Shown here piece after piece: positions 39,650-58,261 of a stretch of 64,000 nt of DNA. How positions within the stretch are numbered: position 1 is the stretch's first letter; each line of letters begins with the position of its first letter. The stretch is from positions 96,001 through 160,000 of the forward strand of contig OZ242164.1 of assembly GCA_965205335.1 (NCBI GenBank). The letters are read 5' to 3'. This DNA comes from Candidatus Woesearchaeota archaeon. GTDB lineage: Archaea; Nanobdellota; Nanobdellia; Woesearchaeales; UBA583. Position numbers and translations under genes: made by a program. The notes below the pieces were generated by a model. It saw only the letters and a program-made list of their open reading frames with translations. It had not been told where the DNA came from and ran no database searches.

Positions 39650-40576
39650 TTAATCTTTATATTTTCCAAATACTTTACTAAACTTCTCGGATGTGACCAT
39701 TAACCATTCCAAATGATAATCCCTATTATAATCAGTTATTATAAAATTTTCTTTAGTTGCTTTAATTCTTGATGCTTTTTTACCTTCTAATTGCATCCAT
39801 TCTAATTTCATATCTAATTCTTTTTCTATCTTATCTTTATTACATTCAAATTTGTAATATAAATCCTTTGAGTCAGGAATATAAATCTCAGTTCCTATTT
39901 GGTTTGTTTGTGAATTAATAGTTAATGCAATATGACTTTCCGAGCTTCCATAACTTAGATCTAACCAATGTTGAGGATGTGCTTTTCTAAATCTTAGCTT
40001 AGAACCTTTTTCCTTACAATATTCTTTTAGTTTATTCCAAAACTCTAATTGCATTAATTGGGTATCAGAGTACCCTCCTTTTCTCTGAGAGGTTTTAATT
40101 GCTTTAGCCCATGAGTTAGGTTTTGAGATTACTTCAAATTTAGGTGCAAAATCAGAATTTCCAATTTGCCATAGTTCCATTTTAATTGCAAAGAAATTTA
40201 ATTTTTCATCGGTGTGTTCATTTAACCAATCAATGGCCTGTTTGTGTTCATCTCTTACATTTTTAACTAGCCAAATAACAATTTCAGCATCATGTCCTGA
40301 AGCATAAGTAATAATTTTACCTAAATGATCATGGTTTGTATTTTCTAATTGATTTTCAATGATTATTTTTCTACCTGTGATTTCTTCTTCTGCTAGAATA
40401 TCCACATTATATCTTCCAACACTTGCTTCTGTTTCTATTACTTTAATTCCTACATCTATTTCTTCACTTAGAATTGCCAGATTCTCTTCTTCAACTAGCC
40501 AGTTTGTGAAATCTAATGCTTCATTTTCCCATGCTTTTCTCAAATCTATTTTTTTCAACTTGCTCAATTTTACCAT
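39650..40576 (-). CDS. DUF4268 protein (copy 2)
   Basis: Near-identical to 19308..20234 including flanks. Confidence 0.85.
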   Translation of the reverse strand: MVKLSKLKKIDLRKAWENEALDFTNWLVEEENLAILSEEIDVGIKVIETEASVGRYNVDILAEEEITGRKIIIENQLENTNHDHLGKIITYASGHDAEIVIWLVKNVRDEHKQAIDWLNEHTDEKLNFFAIKMELWQIGNSDFAPKFEVISKPNSWAKAIKTSQRKGGYSDTQLMQLEFWNKLKEYCKEKGSKLRFRKAHPQHWLDLSYGSSESHIALTINSQTNQIGTEIYIPDSKDLYYKFECNKDKIEKELDMKLEWMQLEGKKASRIKATKENFIITDYNRDYHLEWLMVTSEKFSKVFGKYKD

Positions 40577-41476: not shown

Positions 41477-42061
41477 TTAACTTAGTTTTGAATTTTCAAA
41501 GTCTTCTTTTTTAATTAAAACTTGTTTTAAAACACACTGTGACAATTCGTTTGAACGGGAAAAATCAGAATTTCTTTTTTTATCATAATATGTATATAGT
41601 ATAGTTTTTACGTTTTCACTGTCAATGTCTTTGATTACTGGTACAAAATCACTATCACAAGCAATTAATATTATTTTTTTTATATCAGAGAATTTGTAGG
41701 GTGTTTTTGATAAATCCATAGTTAAATGAGTATCTACACCTTTTTGAGTATATACAAATTTTCTATTCTTTTTCACTCTTTGGACTCTTCCCTCTCTAAT
41801 TGTAATGTTATTTCCAAGAGATAATTTGTGTACAAATTTATCATAGTTCTCTTTCTTTATGCTTTGTTCTCTAGTTGGTTTGCTTGAGATAAATGGAGGG
41901 GCTGTATAGTAAAATATATGTTCAACTTTTAATCTTTCTTTTTTTGCAAAGATTTCTGCTAATCTGAATATGTCATATTTTAAATATTTACCATTTCCAT
42001 AGTGTAAAGCTAATTTTGATAGAAATCCTGCATCAATAAAAATTAGAGTTTTTTCTGACAT
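41477..42061 (-). CDS. NYN-domain ribonuclease (family A)
   Basis: IFIDAGF, FYYTAPP, QKGVDT, IACDSDFVP. Confidence 0.9.
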   Translation of the reverse strand: MSEKTLIFIDAGFLSKLALHYGNGKYLKYDIFRLAEIFAKKERLKVEHIFYYTAPPFISSKPTREQSIKKENYDKFVHKLSLGNNITIREGRVQRVKKNRKFVYTQKGVDTHLTMDLSKTPYKFSDIKKIILIACDSDFVPVIKDIDSENVKTILYTYYDKKRNSDFSRSNELSQCVLKQVLIKKEDFENSKLS

Positions 42062-42098
42062 AGAAATTCAACGTTAGAATTATTTATAAAGTTTTTCA

Positions 42099-42151
42099 GA
42101 AGAGGTGTAGAACTCATCTAGAAACCCCACCTCAAGATCTCTAGGGTGCAT
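42099..42151 (-). ncRNA. Putative pseudoknot small RNA, family A copy 1
   Basis: Lies between its own TATA (42175-42184) and the NYN TATA (42083-42090); conserved with 50037-50090. Confidence 0.6.
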
Positions 42152-42250: not shown

Positions 42251-42836
42251 TCAGTTTCTTGTTCCCTCAAATTCCATTGAAAAGATTCTAGTGTAGATTG
42301 TAACTTTTACTCCTTTTTTTCCTTTAGTGAATAAATTTAAGGTTCTATCGTCTATGTAGTTGTCTATTAGTTTTATTGATTTTTTGGCATTTCTTATTAG
42401 GTCTGAGATAAATTTGTGTGCATCAAATAGTTGTCCTTCAAAGAATATTCCTTTTTGGGGTTTTATGTCAGGGTTTTTAAGTAGTGAGAATATTTTGTTG
42501 AAGTTGGTGTCATAGTCCAATAATTTGTTCTCAATAACATTTAATCTATATAGCATATCTTGATTTTCAGAAATAAATTTTTTCATTTCTATGAATGCAT
42601 TTATTATCTGAATGCTTATTTTGATTGCGGTTTTGCTGTGGAGTACTGCTGAGAGCATTGAAACTCCTTGTTCTGTAAAGACGTAAGGTAATTTTCTTCT
42701 CCCTCCATGTTCATAACTTGAAGTCACAATTTGTGACGTCAAGATTTCATATTCATGTTTAGTCATTTGGAACATAAATTCCTTTGGAAATCTCTCAATA
42801 TTTCTTTTTACTGCCTGATTTAGCACTTTTGTTTCA
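42251..42836 (-). pseudogene. ORF6N-domain gene, 5'-truncated copy of 50182..50868
   Basis: LNQAVKRNIERFP, LPYVFTEQGVSMLS. Confidence 0.8.
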
Positions 42837-42974: not shown

Positions 42975-43551
42975 CTAGGAATGAATAATTCCATAATGTA
43001 TTTTATTTTGGACAGTAGCAAAGAAATTTTTTGTCTGTACGGAGTTTTTGTCATAATCAATTGAAGTTGAGTAAATATCAGTTATTTTCTGGTAGAAATT
43101 CCTTTCACTTGTTCTTATGTCTCTTATTCGCTCAATTAGTTCGTCAAAATAGTTTTTGTCTAAGTCTCTGCCCTGTTTTAATTGTTTGTCATCTAAGACA
43201 AAGCCTTTTATGATGAATTCTTTTAAGTGTTTTGTTGCCCAGATTCTAAATGCAGTTGCTTTTTTTGAATTTACTCTGTAACCTACTGAAATTATAGCGT
43301 CAAGATTGTAGAATCTGACCTGATAAGTTTTGCCATCACTGGCAGTTATCCGATAATATTGGATAACTGAATTTTCTTTTAGTTCTCCACTTTCAAAGAT
43401 GTTTTTTAGGTGATGATTGATAGTTCTAATGTCCACTTCAAAGAGTTGTGCCATTAATCTTTGGGAAAGCCAGATGTTTTCATCTTTAAAGAAAACTTCA
43501 ATTCTGATTTCTTCATTTTTTCTATTGAATAAGACAAAATCTCTTGCTCAT
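42975..43551 (-). pseudogene. RhuM-family (virulence protein) fragment
   Basis: IWLSQRLMAQLF, YNLDAIISVGYRVNS, ERIRDIRTSERNFYQK; truncated, with disrupted 5' end. Confidence 0.85.
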
Positions 43552-43753: not shown

Positions 43754-44722
43754 TTAAATAATTGTTGTAGATGAATTACAATATGGGCACTTTGCGATGG
43801 TGTAAGGTTTACCATAGATTATCTTATTACATTCAACACATCTCACTTCCTTTTCAGAATTATTTCCTTCAAATAATGATTTTGCTCTAGTTTTGGTTAA
43901 ATCTAATCCAAATAAGGATGCTGAATCAGATTTAAATTCAGGAATTGAATCTATAAATTTTGGTGTTAAAAAAAGAGTTTTTAGAGGTCTAGATATAGAA
44001 TTTTGATAATTTTCTTCTTCAAGTATTTGATCATCAGTAATTTTCTTGGTTTTAAATTCTTCTCTGAAAAATCTTGAGAGAGATTTGTAAAGTTTAATGT
44101 TAGATTTTTTTTTCTTTTTCCATTCTTTTTTCAGAAAAGAATTAATATTATCATCATTTAAGTTAGATATAAAATCTTTATCTACAGTAATAAGAATTAA
44201 CTCCTTACCATTATCTACATTTTCTAGGAGAATAAGCCAATTAATACAATCTCCATAAGAGTTATTTTTTCCAGGGGGATTTCCTTTCTTATATCTTTCT
44301 TCAGCTAAAGTTATAATTTTTCCATCAATTTTTATTATTGAATTTTTCTTAAATAACTTGCTAAAAGACTTATCTATAGTTAATTTTTCATTTGATGAAT
44401 CCTTTAATAATTTAGGATGTACCTTTTTAGCAAATTTATTAATTTCTTTAATTCTTTTTTCAATAGCTTTAATACTTTTATTATTTTTACAAAAAGATGG
44501 TGTACTAAATGATTTTTTTTCAAGATCTTTAATGCTTTTTAATGAGGCTTCTAATTTAGCTTCTCTATTTCTATAAAATTCATCAATTACTTGCTCTGTC
44601 AAATATAATTTTATTTTCTTAGTCTCAATTTTTTTAATTAATTCTTCCAACAAATTTGGATGGTCGTCAGTTAAACTATAAATTCTTAAAAATATATTTG
44701 CATCAATAAAAATATGCTTCAT
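43754..44722 (-). CDS. PIN-domain protein (DUF4935/PIN_12-like) with C-terminal Zn ribbon
   Basis: IFIDANIFL, GNPPGK..YGDCINW, ITVDKDF, CVEC..CPYC. Confidence 0.8.
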   Translation of the reverse strand: MKHIFIDANIFLRIYSLTDDHPNLLEELIKKIETKKIKLYLTEQVIDEFYRNREAKLEASLKSIKDLEKKSFSTPSFCKNNKSIKAIEKRIKEINKFAKKVHPKLLKDSSNEKLTIDKSFSKLFKKNSIIKIDGKIITLAEERYKKGNPPGKNNSYGDCINWLILLENVDNGKELILITVDKDFISNLNDDNINSFLKKEWKKKKKSNIKLYKSLSRFFREEFKTKKITDDQILEEENYQNSISRPLKTLFLTPKFIDSIPEFKSDSASLFGLDLTKTRAKSLFEGNNSEKEVRCVECNKIIYGKPYTIAKCPYCNSSTTII

Positions 44723-45082: not shown

Positions 45083-47686
45083 TTAATCCTCATAAACTAT
45101 CCAATAATTAAAATTTTTCTTCCGCCCATCCTTAAGTTCAATTTCCTCTGGAAATTCAAATGTGCCCATCTTTTCATTTAAACTAAATCTTTTTCTAACA
45201 TACAACCCAACTAAAGATGGATCTTTTGAAATTGAAGGAAGGAGATGGAATTTTTCAGATTTTTTCATTTCTAAAATCCTCTCAGGAGGAATTAGCTCAT
45301 TTGAATTAATATTTATTAATTTAGAGAACAATCTTGAAATTATAAACTGTTCAAATGGCTTATACTTATCTAAATCGTGTCCTCTAAACATAATCGGCAC
45401 GAGGAAAACATAACAGGTATCTTCTGTTACAGGATGTTTGTATGGATAATAGTAGCTAATCACTGGAAATTCATCTAAGATTTTAGGTCGACTGTGCATA
45501 AGAGAATAATTATAAATTTCATGAAACAAATCTTCAACTTTTTTTGGGTAAGAAGATATTCCTCTTGAATCAATTACATAACCTCTTGGCAAAGAATCTG
45601 GTTTTTCATATATTAAACTATATAATTTCGTTAAAACTGCATCAGGGCTTCTTCCAAAGAATTCTTGTGATATTTCCGGCTTACTTCTTATCATTAATTT
45701 CAATTCATCCAAATATTTATCATATAAAGAAATTAATCTATTTACATCCTCATCACTCCACGGAGAGTTAAGAATTGAAAACTTTGTTTCTTGTTCCAAG
45801 AAAGGCTCGAAAAGACCATATTTCTTAAAAAGTCTTTTTACTTCAGTAGGACTTGCTTCTCTTAAAAATTTTTTAAATGTCTCGGAGAGTGAAAAAATAT
45901 CTTTATTCTCTTCTTTATATTTTGAAATACTTAAATAGTAAGATTTGTATGGACCTTCAGAACTCCTTTTAATAATTGTTTGACAAATATTCTCTATTTT
46001 CTCTGTTTCATATTCACGTAATCTGTCTTTGTATAAACCAAGTTCAACTAATTGAGGCAATATCTCTTCCATATTAGGATTCTTTCCCTCCCACTTGAAT
46101 CCAAGCAAACTAAATAAACCTATATTTGATACAATGAATTTTTTATTAATTTCCTCAATATTACCAATTTTGGAGAAAACTTTCTTAAACGTCTTAGATC
46201 CTAAAAAAATACTTTTATTGTCTTCTTTATATTTTGAAATACTTAAATAGTAAGATTTGTATCCACCACCTTCAGAATTCCTCTTAATAATTGTTTGACA
46301 AATATTCTCTCTTTTCTCTGTTTCATATTCATTTAATCTGTCTTTGTATAAACCAAGTTCAACTAATTGAGGCAATATCTCTTCCATATTAGGATGCCTT
46401 CCCTCCCAAGTAAATTCAAGCAAATTAAATAAACTTTTATTTGGTTCAATGAATTCATTCTTAATTTCCTCAATATTACCAGTTTTGGAGGAAGCTTCAT
46501 TCTTATATTCGTTAAATGTCTTAGATCCTAAAAAAATACTTTTATTGTCTTCTTTATATTTTGAAATACTTAAATAGTAAGATTTGTATGAACCCTCAGA
46601 AGTCCTGTTGATAATTGTTTGACAAATATTCTCTCTTTTCTCTGTTTCATATTCATTTAATCTGTCTTTGTATAAACCAAGTTCAACTAATTGAGGCAAT
46701 ATCTCTTCCATATTAGGATCCTCTCTCTTCCAAGTAAATTCAAGCAAATTAAATAAACTTTTATTTTTTCGAATGAATTCAGCCTTAATTTCTTCAATAT
46801 TACCAATTTTGGAGAAAGCTTCATTCTTAAATTCGTTAAATGTCTTAGATCCTAAAAAAATACTTTTATTGTCTTCTTTATATTTTGAAATACTTAAATA
46901 GTAAGATTTGTAATTACTTTCAGAAGTCCTGTTGATAATTGTTTGACAAATATTCTCTCTTTTCTCTGTTTCATATTCACGTAATCTGTCTTTGTATAAA
47001 CCAAGTTCAACTAATTGAGGCAATATCTCTTCTATTGTAGGATTCTGTCGCTCCCACTTGAATCCAAGCAAATTAAATAAACTTTTATTTGATACAATGA
47101 ATTCATTCTTAATTTCCTCAATATTACCAGTTTTGGAGAAAGCTTCATTCTTATATTCGTTAAATGTCTTAGATTCTAAAAAAATACTTTTATTGTCTTC
47201 TTTATATTTTGAAATACTTAAATAGTAAGATTTGTATGGACCTTCAGAACTCCTTTTAATAATTGTTTGACAAATATTCTCTATTTCCTCTGTTTCATAT
47301 TCACGTAATCTGTCTTTGTATAAACCAAGTTCAACTAATTGAGGCAATATCTCTTCCCTAATAGGATGCTTTTCCTCCCACTTGAATCCAAGCAAACTAA
47401 ATAAACCATTATTTGATACAATGAATTTAGCCTTAATTTCCTCAATATTTTCTGGTAAAAATAATTGTTTGGAATGTAAAAATCCTCTCGTTTTCCAAGG
47501 TCCTACAAATCTAAATAAAGTATTAAGCAATTCCATTGAATGTTTGAGTTTTTCAAAGTTTGATTCTCCTGTCTCAGCTTTAAAATAATTTTCCTTTAAA
47601 TAGTTTACATATGCAATAAAATTATCCTTGTTGATGTTATCTTTTTTAGATACTAGTACTCCTTTAATGTCTTCAAAACGACTCAT
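45083..47686 (-). CDS. Tandem-repeat protein (5 x ~108 aa) with C-terminal Myb/SANT-like motif
   Basis: 324-bp DNA period (47435 vs 47111); WSDEDVNRL..GRSPDAVLTKL. Confidence 0.85.
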   Translation of the reverse strand: MSRFEDIKGVLVSKKDNINKDNFIAYVNYLKENYFKAETGESNFEKLKHSMELLNTLFRFVGPWKTRGFLHSKQLFLPENIEEIKAKFIVSNNGLFSLLGFKWEEKHPIREEILPQLVELGLYKDRLREYETEEIENICQTIIKRSSEGPYKSYYLSISKYKEDNKSIFLESKTFNEYKNEAFSKTGNIEEIKNEFIVSNKSLFNLLGFKWERQNPTIEEILPQLVELGLYKDRLREYETEKRENICQTIINRTSESNYKSYYLSISKYKEDNKSIFLGSKTFNEFKNEAFSKIGNIEEIKAEFIRKNKSLFNLLEFTWKREDPNMEEILPQLVELGLYKDRLNEYETEKRENICQTIINRTSEGSYKSYYLSISKYKEDNKSIFLGSKTFNEYKNEASSKTGNIEEIKNEFIEPNKSLFNLLEFTWEGRHPNMEEILPQLVELGLYKDRLNEYETEKRENICQTIIKRNSEGGGYKSYYLSISKYKEDNKSIFLGSKTFKKVFSKIGNIEEINKKFIVSNIGLFSLLGFKWEGKNPNMEEILPQLVELGLYKDRLREYETEKIENICQTIIKRSSEGPYKSYYLSISKYKEENKDIFSLSETFKKFLREASPTEVKRLFKKYGLFEPFLEQETKFSILNSPWSDEDVNRLISLYDKYLDELKLMIRSKPEISQEFFGRSPDAVLTKLYSLIYEKPDSLPRGYVIDSRGISSYPKKVEDLFHEIYNYSLMHSRPKILDEFPVISYYYPYKHPVTEDTCYVFLVPIMFRGHDLDKYKPFEQFIISRLFSKLININSNELIPPERILEMKKSEKFHLLPSISKDPSLVGLYVRKRFSLNEKMGTFEFPEEIELKDGRKKNFNYWIVYED

Positions 47687-47835: not shown

Positions 47836-48594
47836 CTAAATTAAGTTTATCTGAAATCCTCCAAAATACTCTAACAAACCAATTCTAACTGGACTTCTAC
47901 CCAAATACTTCCTCATAAAATAATTCAACCTATTCCCAATAATAGTATTTGCTACCTCAACAAATCTTCTAGGATATACAAATATATCACCATCAAAAGT
48001 TTCTCCTAAGGGACCGAATCTACCTGATAGATAGGATTTGGCATTCCTCAAATCTAAGGAATAACTTCCTGTTGCAATTATTCCAACTCCCTCACCTATC
48101 TTTCCTCTATCTACCAAATTTTTAAGTGCCATTGGCCAACCATTGTAAAATGTGACTTCATCTAGGATAATAATTAAGGGTTTGTGTTCATTAAACTTCT
48201 CAAGGAGTGCTTCAATCAACTCTTGCAAATTCTTCTTTGAATTTAAAACACCAAGTAGCTTTTCATTATCTAAAGAAAAATAAAGTAAAGACTTAGGTGA
48301 AACTCCTTCTTCAATTAGTTTCTTAGTAATGAATTTCAACATTGAAGTTTTTCCAATTCTCCTAGGACCTCTAATTACAACCATCCCAAATTTATTCCTC
48401 TCATTAAAATGTCTATCAAAAAAATTTTCTTTCAAATAAAAATATACTTTTGGGGGTTCATCACTAAGTCCCAAATTTTCAGCATCAACAATATACCTCA
48501 ATGCTTCATCTTCCTTGTACCAGTCTTCATTAGTAATCCAAGGACTTTCCTGCAAAACTAGATCTACTAAATCATCAATCTCCTTTCTTTCCAT
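47836..48594 (-). CDS. AAA_14-type ATPase, probably truncated
   Basis: RGPRRIGKT, IILDEV, IATGS, LSGR. Confidence 0.8.
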   Translation of the reverse strand: MERKEIDDLVDLVLQESPWITNEDWYKEDEALRYIVDAENLGLSDEPPKVYFYLKENFFDRHFNERNKFGMVVIRGPRRIGKTSMLKFITKKLIEEGVSPKSLLYFSLDNEKLLGVLNSKKNLQELIEALLEKFNEHKPLIIILDEVTFYNGWPMALKNLVDRGKIGEGVGIIATGSYSLDLRNAKSYLSGRFGPLGETFDGDIFVYPRRFVEVANTIIGNRLNYFMRKYLGRSPVRIGLLEYFGGFQINLI

Positions 48595-49319: not shown

Positions 49320-49425
49320 TAAAAGATAGTTCTAATCAAAATTTATCTGTAATTCATTCTTGTGACTCACATTCTTAGCACTATTTTCAAATCTCTTTAA
49401 AATCTCTTCCTTGGGTTCATTTCTT

Positions 49426-49998
49426 TCAATTTTCAAAGTCTTCTTTTTTAATTAAAACATATTTTTCCACATTCTGTAATAATTCATTTGACCTTGAAAA
49501 ATTAGTATTTCTGTCTCTATTAAAATAAGTGTAAAGAATTGTTTTAACTCCCTTTTTGTAAGCATTGTTTATCGCAGGAATAAAATCAGTATCACATGCA
49601 ATTAGAATTACATTTTTTATATTTGGATATTTAGCAGAAGTCTCAATTAAATCAATAGTTAGCAAAGTATCAACTCCTTTTTGAGAAAACTTGTACCTAT
49701 TACCCTCTTTTACTCTTTGACACCTTCCTTCTCTTATAGTAATTATTGAATTTTTCTTAAGTTTTAGAAGAAATTTATCATAATTTTCTTTTCTTCTGTT
49801 TTCATCTTCTGTTGGTCTATTTGAAACAAATGGTGGGGCAGTATAATAAAAAATCCTTTCAATCTTAAAATTTTCTTTTTTAGCAAAAATATTTAGTAAA
49901 CTAGTTATATCAAATTTCAGATATTTTCCATTTCCCAAGTATTGAGAGAGTTTTGAAAGAAATCCAGCATCAACTAGTATAAGTGTTCTCCTATTCAT
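49426..49998 (-). CDS. NYN-domain ribonuclease (family A)
   Basis: ILVDAGF, FYYTAPP, QKGVDT, IACDTDFIP. Confidence 0.9.
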   Translation of the reverse strand: MNRRTLILVDAGFLSKLSQYLGNGKYLKFDITSLLNIFAKKENFKIERIFYYTAPPFVSNRPTEDENRRKENYDKFLLKLKKNSIITIREGRCQRVKEGNRYKFSQKGVDTLLTIDLIETSAKYPNIKNVILIACDTDFIPAINNAYKKGVKTILYTYFNRDRNTNFSRSNELLQNVEKYVLIKKEDFEN

Positions 49999-50036
49999 TA
50001 AGAATTCTTAGAAGAAATACTTTATAAATTTTATCT

Positions 50037-50090
50037 AAGGGGGTGTAGAACATCATCTAGAAACCCCACCCCGAGATCTCTAGGGTGCAT
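50037..50090 (-). ncRNA. Putative pseudoknot small RNA, family A copy 2
   Basis: ATGCACCCTAGAGATCTCGGGGTGGGGTTTCTAGATGATGTTCTACACCCCCTT; TATA at 50115-50123. Confidence 0.6.
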
Positions 50091-50181
50091 GTTAGTTTAT
50101 TCTAAGACTTCTTTATTTATATAGTTTTCTATGTTTTCTAAACTTTCTATACTGACTTAGGGTGTTAGGTGGATATTTTGC

Positions 50182-50868
50182 TCAGTTTCTTGTTCCCTCA
50201 AATTCCATTGAAAAGATTCTAGTGTAGATTGTAACTTTTACTCCTTTTTTTCCTTTAGTGAATAAATTTAAGGTTCTATCGTCTATGTAGTTGTCTATTA
50301 GTTTTATTGATTTTTTGGCATTTCTTATTAGGTCTGAGATAAATTTGTGTGCATCAAATAGTTGTCCTTCAAAGAATATTCCTTTTTGGGGTTTTATGTC
50401 TGGGTTTTTAAGTAGTGAGAATATTTTGTTGAAGTTGGTGTCATAGTCCAATAATTTGTTCTCAATAACATTTAATCTATATAGCATATCTTGATTTTCA
50501 GAAATAAATTTTTTCATTTCTATGAATGCATTTATTATCTGAATGCTTATTTTGATTGCGGTTTTGCTGTGGAGTACTGCTGAGAGCATTGAAACTCCTT
50601 GTTCTGTAAAGACGTAAGGTAATTTTCTCCTTCCTCCATGTTTATGACTTGAAGTCACAATTTGTGACATCAAGTTTTCATATTCTTGTTTGATCATTTG
50701 AAACATAAATTCTTTTGGGAATCTTTCAATATTTCTTTTTACTGCTTGATTTAGCACTTTTGTTTCAACTTGGTAGAATTTAGCCAAATCAGAATCAAGC
50801 ATGACTTGAACTCCTCTAATGATATGAATTTTGTTTTTTATGTTTTTGATTAATTCAGCTCTTTCCAT
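50182..50868 (-). CDS. ORF6N-domain protein (C-terminal domain truncated)
   Basis: IRGVQVMLDSDLAKFYQVET, FPKEFMFQ, LIDNYID. Confidence 0.85.
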   Translation of the reverse strand: MERAELIKNIKNKIHIIRGVQVMLDSDLAKFYQVETKVLNQAVKRNIERFPKEFMFQMIKQEYENLMSQIVTSSHKHGGRRKLPYVFTEQGVSMLSAVLHSKTAIKISIQIINAFIEMKKFISENQDMLYRLNVIENKLLDYDTNFNKIFSLLKNPDIKPQKGIFFEGQLFDAHKFISDLIRNAKKSIKLIDNYIDDRTLNLFTKGKKGVKVTIYTRIFSMEFEGTRN

Positions 50869-52766: not shown

Positions 52767-53302
52767 GTAAAAAAACTTATTTAGAATTTATTTATTTATT
52801 AAGTGTGTTACTTCAAATTCTTTTAAAAGTTTCTGGGATATGTTTTTTTCAAAATAGCATAATTCTATTTTTTTATTGTTTTCTTTTAGATTCTTAATTA
52901 CTGGGATAAAATCTCCATCACCACTAATTAGAATGAATTTTTCACAAATGTTTTCATAGTTACATTTAAGCATATCAACTGCTAAATTTACATCATCTCC
53001 TTTGATTATATATTGTTCTTTTTCCTCAATTAATCTTTTATGTCTCTTGCATAGGATAATATTGAAATTTTTAATTTTTCTTAATCTTTTAAAAAATTCC
53101 TGTTGTTTTACAAATAAATTTTCAAGACCCTTTAATTTTTTTAGAGAACCATTATAATAAAAGATTTCTACTATAATTTCTTTGTCTCCTATTAAATAAT
53201 TTATATATTTTTCAAAATCAAAACTAATATCAGAATATCTCTTATTTATTGTCCTAACACCATAGAAGAAATTAGCCCCATCTATAAAAAACAAACTTTC
53301 AT
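52767..53302 (-). pseudogene. NYN-domain gene (family B), decayed
   Basis: FIDGANF, KGDDVNLAVD, SGDGDF; ATG at 53302 is out of frame by 1 nt; premature TAA precedes ILNKFFYRE. Confidence 0.8.
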
Positions 53303-57703: not shown

Positions 57704-58261
57704 ATGAAAGTTCTTGTTTTTATAGATGGTGCTAATTTCTTTTATGGCATAAGAAGTATTAGATCTAAATATAGTGATTTAAATTTTAATTTTGAAAAAT
57801 ATATAAAAAATGAGATTTTAAAAGAAGCAGATGAATTATTGAACGTTTTCTATTACAATGCTCCATTAAAAAACTTAGGTGGAAATAATAATCTGTATGC
57901 TAAACAACAAAGATTTTTTATAAAATTAGAGAAAACAGAAAAGTTCAAAGTAATTTTGTGTAAAAGGCAGAAGAGATTAAATGAAAGAGGAGAAGAGTTT
58001 CACGTAATTAAAGGTGATGACATTCATTTAGCAGTTGATTTAGTTAGATGTTTATATGAAACAGAAGTTGATAAGATAATTTTAATGAGTGGAGATGGGG
58101 ATTTCAAACCTGCAATCAGATTGGCAAAAGAGAAAGATAAAATTGTAAATCTGTGTTATTTTAAAGATAACATTTCTAAGAATATTTATAATATAACAAA
58201 TCAGAAGTATTTAATAGATAAAAGAATTTTAAATAAATATTTTTATAGATGGAAAAAATGA
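57704..58261 (+). CDS. NYN-domain ribonuclease (family B)
   Basis: VFIDGANF, FYYNAP, KGDDIHLAVD, MSGDGDFKP. Confidence 0.9.
   Translation: MKVLVFIDGANFFYGIRSIRSKYSDLNFNFEKYIKNEILKEADELLNVFYYNAPLKNLGGNNNLYAKQQRFFIKLEKTEKFKVILCKRQKRLNERGEEFHVIKGDDIHLAVDLVRCLYETEVDKIILMSGDGDFKPAIRLAKEKDKIVNLCYFKDNISKNIYNITNQKYLIDKRILNKYFYRWKK

Follow-up and report, generated by a model that had tools for sequence, protein, structure and literature searches.

The stretch of DNA analysed here, which we call the window, comprises 64,000 nucleotides (nt) of the genome of a Candidatus Woesearchaeota archaeon (contig OZ242164.1, positions 96,001 to 160,000); the host genome is a single contig of 1.2 Mb, and the window has a G+C content of 26%. 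Two genes in the window encode proteins with an NYN domain (Pfam PF01936), and each is preceded by a short GC-rich element which, judged from the comparisons presented below, is this genome's form of a family-wide RNA module accompanying one NYN subfamily in DPANN archaea. A preliminary description of the window had claimed for both genes, its family A, a shared minus-strand layout consisting of a TATA box, about 25 nt of spacer, the GC-rich element, a second TATA box and a leaderless NYN open reading frame (ORF), and this order is indeed present at both loci. The individual features, all on the minus strand, are listed below for the two copies, designated B and A; the last line for each gives the match of a covariance model of the element, R1, in genome coordinates.

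Copy B
50182-50868, minus strand: ORF6N gene, with a 3' part (50182-50639) nearly identical to that of copy A
50123-50116, minus strand: TATA1, TATATAAA, 33 nt upstream of the element ATG (50090)
50031..50090, minus strand: element, containing the hairpin; its ATG at 50090 is the predicted transcription start and opens a 19-codon mini-ORF, MHPRDLGVGFLDDVLHPLR
50057..50083, minus strand: hairpin (helix 1), 9-bp arms 50083-50075 and 50065-50057 with a 9-nt loop, homologous to the family-wide 10-bp hairpin
50040..50072, minus strand: candidate helix 2, GGGGTG at 50072-50067 (in the hairpin loop) with CACCCC at 50045-50040, giving a putative H-type pseudoknot
50028-50021, minus strand: TATA2, TTTATAAA, 30 nt upstream of the NYN ATG (49998)
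49426..49998, minus strand: NYN gene, 190 amino acids, leaderless, Pfam PF01936 with E 1.1e-10
G000:C1:146040-146092: match of covariance model R1

Copy A
42251-42826, minus strand: ORF6N gene, with the corresponding 3' part at 42251-42708
42183-42176, minus strand: TATA1, TATATAAA, 33 nt upstream of the element ATG (42151)
42080..42151, minus strand: element, ATG at 42151, with a 23-codon mini-ORF
42144-42136 and 42126-42118, minus strand: arms of the hairpin (helix 1)
42133-42128 and 42107-42102, minus strand: arms of candidate helix 2
42090-42083, minus strand: TATA2, TTTATAAA, 29 nt upstream of the NYN ATG (42061)
41477..42061, minus strand: NYN gene, 194 amino acids, 61% identical to copy B, PF01936 with E 1.1e-8
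G000:C1:138101-138153: match of covariance model R1

The two loci have diverged unevenly. The ORF6N genes are only about 72% identical in their 5' parts, but 99–100% identical over their last 458 nt (455/458) and the following intergenic sequence up to TATA1; the 56 nt after the ORF6N stop codon agree at 56/56 positions, plus a 9-nt indel, the sole one of this tract, which is explained by a 9-nt unit, TTTCTAAAC, present twice, and TATA1 itself agrees at 11/11. Downstream of it the spacer between TATA1 and the element is identical at 17 of 22 positions, the element at 49 of 54, the sequence from TATA2 to the NYN ATG at 10 of 21 and the NYN ORF at 390 of 573. The three substitutions and one internal indel that had been reported between the two elements are correct over 50090-50040, with two further mismatches at 50039-50037, and the counts also bear out the reported divergence of the spacer and the NYN ORF relative to the element. 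The pattern, which the preliminary description had not noted, is that of a recent duplication or gene-conversion tract ending at TATA1, just upstream of the NYN module, and on this comparison the element is a conserved island within an older, diverged part of the locus. Because of the duplicated block, conservation within this genome alone is weak evidence; that the element is not a product of chance is indicated by its recurrence upstream of NYN homologues in other genomes, which have different upstream genes. A derivation of the element from the upstream ORF6N gene, as a remnant of it, was rejected on the same basis, since unrelated genes precede the element in those genomes.

Both NYN ORFs pass the gathering score of PF01936 (scores of 42.7 and 36.1 bits; cut-off 24.2) and match no other Pfam family. 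In an AlphaFold2 model, based on a 53-sequence alignment, of a homologue whose reading frame runs through the element (a fused homologue, see below), the NYN domain has a predicted local distance difference test score (pLDDT) above 90, and the top match of the model in the PDB is the NYN domain of mouse MARF1 (5yaa, E 1.1e-5). Aspartates 10, 110, 116, 136 and 138 of copy B are invariant in our NYN alignment A2, and we take them to be the catalytic residues. The window proteins thus have the PF01936 match and the MARF1 fold in common with LabA-like and MARF1-type NYN proteins (PF01936, COG1432), from which the DPANN subfamily is set apart by its score against NCBIfam TIGR00288, 19–21 bits and hence far under the cut-off of 178. 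Among known NYN proteins, the prokaryotic members of PF01936 are listed as "function unknown" in the available part of Matelska et al. 2017 (PMC5499597), which does not mention an associated RNA element, and a CRISPR-associated NYN protein is described by Chi and White 2024 as cutting single-stranded RNA without sequence specificity and requiring Mn2+. A PADLOC search gave weak hits only, to NYN and HEC-09 (E 1e-3 to 3e-5), and no NYN relative was found among the viral contigs of IMG/VR.

Other NYN genes are present in the same genome. A third, truncated copy (L010; G000:C1:166483-166794) is located about 6.5 kb past the window end; it is 99% identical to residues 87-190 of copy B and has no R1 element upstream. 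Two further PF01936 genes, at 52818-53288 on the minus strand and 57707-58186 on the plus strand, belong to another subfamily, and five of the six PF01936 matches of the genome fall within about 30 kb.

A hairpin linked to one NYN subfamily

Relatives of the window proteins were collected in scans with alignment A2, from which the best 80 of 94 confirmed stretches in species-representative genomes and the best 80 of 331 in metagenomes were retained (43–70% identity); nearly all loci returned are labelled as DPANN archaea. The scan loci, the two window copies and one additional locus (L006) make up a set of 165 NYN matches, in which some contigs are represented in both collections. A hairpin finder requiring a perfectly paired stem of at least 9 bp that ends at a conserved GAYG placed a hairpin at 159 of the 165, and model R1 recovered the element in five of the six cases that the finder had missed (L033, L042, L054, L058 and L109) and corrected two misplaced hairpins (L032 and L024); the sixth, L122, has just 5 nt of upstream sequence. 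With the two methods combined, the element is present at all 164 NYN relatives having assessable upstream sequence, the opposite of the outcome that the preliminary description had named as speaking against its proposal, namely the lack of a conserved or covarying element upstream of other homologues. In three genomes of the same genus, the NYN homologues (52–69% identity) have unrelated upstream genes and the element is found in all.

The element is equally restricted. Both BLAST and R1 find only two copies in the 1.2-Mb genome, and R1 gives no match at distant NYN homologues (30–35% identity; L007 and L008), at the truncated copy L010 or at the remaining PF01936 genes of the genome. When 150 further genomes of the order were sampled evenly, three had an R1 match, with an NYN gene downstream in two and an orphan element in the third; the NYN subfamily is itself patchily distributed, a protein search detecting it in 6 of 61 genomes including the window's own, that is, in 5 of 60 relatives. 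A survey of neighbouring genes at 160 loci revealed no conserved neighbour, the commonest being present at 12 of them, and no recombinase associated with the NYN loci. The element is exclusively linked to one NYN (PF01936) subfamily in DPANN archaea, and NYN is its sole conserved partner.

Unusual arrangements occur at a few loci. The orphan element (L174:1501-1550, genome G056) scores 51.9 bits and has a TATA-like box; within 1.5 kb of it there is no relative of NYN. At L024 (1332-1381 and 1454-1503), L109 (73-126 and 1005-1058) and L074 (1321-1370 and 1407-1450) the element occurs twice, the copies being spaced apart, and L096, L097 and L153 each have two tandem NYN paralogues, every one with its own module.

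The structure of the element was derived from an alignment of 137 distinct sequences (A3, 54 columns), in which columns 10-19 form a helix with columns 28-37. The 10 base pairs are formed in 98.6% of 1370 cells and eight of them show changes on both sides (160 cells); the observed values were matched by 0 of 500 shuffles, in a test that ignores relatedness, and pairing falls to 21–49% when the partner strand is slid by 1–3 columns. The helix predicted by RNAalifold is exactly this one. On a FastTree phylogeny of 139 NYN domains, where counts of changes are inflated by tree error, pair 12-35 changed at least 18 times between G-C and A-U and was never unpaired, pair 11-36 at least 16 times and pair 15-32 at least 33 times, and such repeated changes imply that the covariation represents many events. 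A U.G wobble is kept at two pairs, in 110 and 135 of the 137 sequences, which argues that it is the sense-strand RNA that folds, rather than duplex DNA. The loop has four bases in 112 of 136 sequences, and 83 of the 136 are of the GNRA (53) or UNCG (30) type. Typical members fold into the hairpin far better than their shuffled counterparts (z -2.84 and -3.14), the consensus hairpin having free energies of -17.5 and -18.7 kcal/mol. Downstream of the hairpin the family has an invariant GAUGA and then a U-rich tail. The hairpin is selected as a sense-strand RNA structure, and the structured RNA that the preliminary description had tied to NYN is conserved, covarying and specific to this NYN family across genomes.

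Scanned against Rfam 15, as that description had proposed, the whole window has 0 matches at the gathering score; relaxing the limit to E 10 adds just three hits at chance level (E 0.9–1.9), which score far under the gathering cut-offs. Other structural candidates were discarded. An outer helix around the hairpin (A3 columns 5-8 with 40-43) is 74.8% paired, its two inner pairs being open in 77 and 54 of the 137 sequences; ARAGORN reported 0 genes for a tRNA or split tRNA.

The consensus 5' arm, GGUGAUCC (A3 columns 12-19), is a perfect 8-nt complement of the 3' end of the organism's own 16S rRNA (L173:2930-2951), and the sequence of the 3' arm is similar to this 16S end except for two A-to-G changes, located exactly at the conserved wobbles. 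A mimic of the Shine-Dalgarno (SD) sequence as the selected feature was nonetheless rejected, since the complementarity is lost in 22 sequences with A-U at pair 15-32, in five with U-A or U-G at pair 16-31 and in the GAGAUC of the window, and there is no start codon at SD distance; the match of GGUGAUCC to the 16S rRNA is probably coincidental.

In the window's genus (the two window copies, L011 and L032), the hairpin loop is larger by exactly three bases, and a C-rich segment 11–12 nt beyond the hairpin is able to pair with six bases of the loop, which would create an H-type pseudoknot. All 15 pairs of helices 1 and 2 can form in each of the four genus sequences, and three of them changed on both sides; helix 2 by itself has six pairs, 100% paired, with two of the six changed on both sides, the compensatory change noted earlier (GGGGTG/CACCCC versus GAGGTG/CACCTC) being a genuine two-sided one. 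None of the other 133 elements in A3 has helix 2. On four related sequences the pseudoknot is plausible but only suggestive, and would be a feature of the genus, not of the family. Thus, the first helix of the pseudoknot proposed in the preliminary description (CTAGAGATC with GGTTTCTAG) corresponds to the family-wide hairpin, whereas the second is limited to four sequences of one genus; an alternative CACCC/GGGTG hairpin suggested there is disfavoured, being 85% paired, broken in 3 of 20 cells and devoid of covariation.

Promoter, transcript and reading frame

Across the family the module begins with an archaeal TATA box, followed after about 24 nt by an A-U-G/A start point and after another 7 nt by the 10-bp hairpin, which in most cases is capped by a GNRA or UNCG tetraloop and has two conserved G.U wobbles; GAUGA and the U-rich tail come last, in that order. 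At 124 of 158 loci the distance from the start of the box to the conserved AT(G/A) is 31 nt, and at 25 more it is 30–34 nt, in a count that used a TATA pattern; the entropy profile of the box, discussed below, did not. In the window, TATA-like hexamers peak at -32 to -27 from the ATG of 44 ORFs of at least 120 amino acids and SD-like motifs are rare, and the position of this peak places both the NYN ATGs and the element ATGs at the organism's normal leaderless distance. Archaeal leaderless units have the TATA box about 27–33 nt upstream of the start codon, and the corresponding distances are 33 nt for the element ATGs and 29–30 nt for the NYN ATGs. The window organism appears to use mostly leaderless mRNAs, whereas the NYN genes of many relatives are preceded by SD sequences.

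The hairpin is in frame with NYN, in one constant codon phase, at 71 of the 158 loci, which we call fused, and lies in a separate leader or mini-ORF at the remaining 87; neither this overlap with coding sequence nor the mini-ORFs of the window had been noted in the preliminary description. An SD-like motif precedes the NYN ATG at 46 of 79 distinct separate loci; only eight have a TATA-like box there without an SD motif, three of them from the genus of the window (both window copies and L011). As most separate loci have an SD-led NYN gene without a promoter of its own, the element would usually be the 5' leader of the NYN mRNA, and the predicted NYN promoter of the window is a minority arrangement. 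The separate promotion of RNA and gene that had been claimed is consistent with the two TATA boxes of the window, but elsewhere the element is mostly a leader within the NYN transcript. A run of at least five T follows within 24 nt of the hairpin at 52% of fused and 71% of separate loci; the U-run of the family begins 6–8 nt after the stem, behind a conserved spacer, which is not the geometry of an intrinsic terminator. No terminator-like site was detected in 49350-50250, nor is there a T-run of five or more between element and NYN in either window copy, so that transcripts from TATA1 should continue into NYN.

At the fused loci, the frame extends upstream through the TATA-like box to an ATG 45–100 nt further up, which has either an SD sequence or, at leaderless distance, a further TATA box in front of it. 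Many of the 87 separate loci have a small ORF of about 40–50 codons that covers the TATA-like box and the hairpin and whose end frequently coincides or overlaps with the NYN start; others, the window's genus included, have a short ORF or none. On the NYN tree, at least 14 changes between the fused and the separate state are required.

Codon-level variation indicates what is maintained at the fused loci. In the TATA-like box and the hairpin, conservation is highest at third codon positions: in the codon that precedes the conserved TAT-AAA, entropy falls from 1.60 bits at the first position through 0.68 at the second to 0.30 at the third, and several codons in or beside the hairpin combine an invariant third base with variable first and second bases. 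At all 55 loci that encode Tyr the codon in the box is TAT, never TAC, compared with a ratio of 85:15 in gene bodies; the remaining 5 of 60 loci have TTT or TAA. The hairpin is written in the codons CCC/CCT, CCG, TCG, GGG and GGT although G+C at third codon positions in gene bodies is 0.22, where TCG accounts for 4% of Ser, CCG for 14% of Pro, and GGG and GGT for 20% and 14% of Gly codons. Amino acid replacements track the base pairing, Gly/Ser on one arm switching with Pro/Leu on the other, and the N-terminal extension of 30 residues in the AlphaFold2 model of the fused protein is disordered (pLDDT 48–54) and makes no contacts with the NYN domain. The inverted codon-position entropy points to constraint on the nucleotides and not on the protein, and the TATA-like box and hairpin are constrained at the nucleotide level even where they are translated. 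We read this as a real promoter and RNA hairpin being tolerated inside, and repeatedly fused to, the NYN frame, while the peptide may still matter.

Possible function and rival explanations

We tentatively favour the view that the hairpin is a specific binding or cleavage site of the NYN protein itself, which would place the nuclease under control at the RNA level. The fixed wobbles and the invariant GAUGA exceed what stability would need, NYN is the only constant companion, and the hairpin persists where NYN has a promoter of its own. Transcription would start at or near the conserved AUG, leaving the hairpin at the extreme 5' end of the RNA, and binding or cutting of it by NYN could result in negative feedback or neutralisation. 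The action would be in cis where the hairpin lies in the NYN mRNA, as at the fused and SD-led loci, and might also be in trans in the window, where NYN has its own TATA box and a predicted leaderless transcript; read-through from TATA1 would there produce a hairpin-bearing, poorly translatable NYN mRNA.

Several observations weigh against a specific recognition site, or against the evidence on which it is built. A plain structural throttle would require no recognition by NYN. The module is translated as part of NYN at 71 of 158 loci, with credible upstream start signals, so that it may have a role at the protein level, and the proposed transcription start is ATA or ATT instead of ATG at 29 of the 158. 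The perfect-pairing rule of the hairpin finder builds in part of the figure for paired cells, while the two-sided changes and the recovery of imperfect cases by the covariance model are unaffected by it; the relatedness of the sequences means that the shuffle test overstates significance. Finally, single-sequence folds of the two window copies are ambiguous (z -0.74 and -0.06), since their runs of G and C permit alternative pairings.

The main rival dispenses with NYN recognition altogether: a hairpin 7 nt after a 5'-terminal AUG would block leaderless initiation in cis and the U-rich tail would end transcripts early, so that little nuclease is made. We regard such a throttle as rather unlikely. 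It would account for a stable hairpin at position +8 of the predicted transcript and for the frequent T-runs soon after it, and since most separate loci have an SD-led NYN lacking a promoter (46 of 79 with an SD), the gene would there have to be read through from the promoter of the element. What it leaves unexplained is that the sequence itself is conserved beyond pairing, in the two near-invariant wobbles and GAUGA; moreover, the U-run stands 6–8 nt past the stem, the window has no terminator-like site, and a purely cis effect would miss the leaderless mRNA made from the window's own NYN promoter, yet the element has remained far more similar (49/54) than NYN (390/573). The literal type III-like pair of the preliminary description, with a separately transcribed pseudoknot RNA that neutralises an NYN toxin in trans, is in our estimation quite unlikely. 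The order of promoter, structured RNA and nuclease gene agrees with the type III loci in the accessible text of Blower et al. 2012 (PMC3401426), the pseudoknot helix can form in all four genus sequences with its two two-sided changes, and the module is stand-alone and patchy, by R1 (3 of 150) as well as by protein search (5 of 60); a precedent for a non-repeat RNA neutralising a toxin in cis and in trans is reported for RCd22 with AbiF (10.1101/2025.04.15.648962). Such a pair is difficult to reconcile with the lack of tandem repeats, the NYN/MARF1 fold, the lack of a terminator between RNA and gene in the window, the 133 elements missing the pseudoknot helix, and the many loci at which the RNA lies inside the nuclease ORF.

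Two further explanations place the function outside the RNA. If the N-terminal extension or a small leader protein (here a leaderless mini-ORF of 19–23 codons) were an antitoxin, an autoinhibitory tail or a ribosome-sensing leader, the hairpin would be secondary. An open frame with an upstream ATG exists at 66 of 71 fused and about 60 of 87 separate loci, with credible SD or TATA signals; the small ORFs often end overlapping the NYN start, the loop of the genus gains exactly 3 nt and so keeps the frame, the element ATG lies at leaderless distance from TATA1, and the 14 or more switches between fusion and separation are common for interacting parts. The codon-position entropy is inverted, however, codon usage is dictated by pairing, replacements follow base-pair covariation and the modelled extension is not docked on the NYN domain; the hairpin is also kept where the frame is short or has no ATG (L044, L048, L149, L155 and L110), and the tails are not conserved within the genus, all of which makes a peptide function very unlikely. 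An element acting as DNA, such as an operator, a recombination hot spot or a cassette junction bordering NYN genes on the 5' side, would fit the near-identical duplicated tract that ends beside the module in the window, the unrelated neighbourhoods of the NYN modules and the orphan element (L174). We consider it highly improbable, because the conserved G.U wobbles would become A-C mismatches in the opposite strand, tetraloops of the GNRA and UNCG types are features of RNA, the duplicated tract stops at TATA1, about 25 nt short of the hairpin and not within it, and there is no associated recombinase.

A bolder extension of NYN recognition would be a repeat-less, single-hairpin RNA antitoxin of DPANN archaea, in which the promoter and hairpin, set in or before the first codons of the nuclease, yield a short 5' RNA that silences NYN. 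We hold this to be unlikely. If it were true, loss of a labile RNA, for example through viral shut-off, would unleash the nuclease, and the module would represent a new class of RNA-protein toxin-antitoxin or abortive-infection system, with promoter, RNA structure and protein within the same 80 bases.

Known systems and genomic surroundings

Type III toxin-antitoxin loci, following the criteria in the accessible text of Blower et al. 2012, have a toxin of the ToxN family preceded by a terminator, which is in turn preceded by a tandem repeat array. The NYN loci of the window have no repeat array, no toxin of the ToxN, CptN or TenpN type and no terminator, and by these criteria do not belong to this class; no tandem repeats overlap 42099-42151 or 50037-50090, where there is one R1 match per NYN gene. 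Like ToxIN, CptIN and TenpIN, the NYN loci have a structured RNA directly upstream of an endoribonuclease gene and in the same direction, form a small stand-alone accessory module and, in the window's genus, might include a pseudoknot; unlike them, the RNA is single-copy, the protein has an NYN fold and the RNA is often inside the nuclease ORF. The closest functional analogy to the binding or cleavage site that we favour is offered by RCd22, an abiF-motif RNA of Clostridioides difficile. As reported in the source cited above, this non-repeat RNA represses the adjacent AbiF gene and neutralises AbiF by direct binding, in cis and in trans. The NYN hairpin differs in the protein family (Abi_2/AbiD/F versus NYN), in the domain of life and in the RNA motif, which is unrelated.

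Ribonucleases that control their own mRNA by means of a stem-loop include Regnase-1, whose catalytic domain is PIN/NYN-like and which acts on a stem-loop in its 3' untranslated region, and the rnc and rne leaders of E. coli. The NYN loci resemble them in having a conserved hairpin in the nuclease gene's own transcript. The hairpins of Regnase-1, rnc and rne are located in untranslated regions, in bacteria or eukaryotes, whereas that of NYN is predicted to be 5'-terminal, overlaps coding sequence in 45% of loci and is accompanied by a promoter-like box in the ORF. Full-text searches of open-access papers, supplementary files aside, on NYN in archaea and DPANN, on toxin-antitoxin systems and on structured RNA in DPANN brought up nothing about the motif. 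The NYN-associated RNA motif is apparently undescribed, and would be a variant of a known theme, in which a structured RNA guards the gene for a toxic nuclease.

A strongly covarying motif with 137 distinct examples lies outside Rfam 15. Gene regulation in DPANN archaea is barely explored, and the motif offers a cheap handle on the function of these NYN proteins and on how they are restrained. It is also a case of overlapping codes, as the TATA box and hairpin persist whether translated or not and module and NYN ORF were joined or separated on at least 14 occasions, which is relevant to the annotation of gene starts in archaeal genomes from metagenomes and to motif searches in which coding regions are masked.

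The surroundings of the NYN loci in the window look like a variable or defence-type island. Genes of accessory type between 39650 and 48594 encode a DUF4268 protein (39650-40576), RhuM (42975-43454), PIN_12 (43754-44722) and an AAA_14 ATPase (47836-48594), and ORF6N belongs to the same set. Within an 867-amino-acid ORF on the minus strand (45083-47686), a 324-nt unit is repeated 4.8 times with 90% identity (45892-47449), as in a repeat-domain protein.

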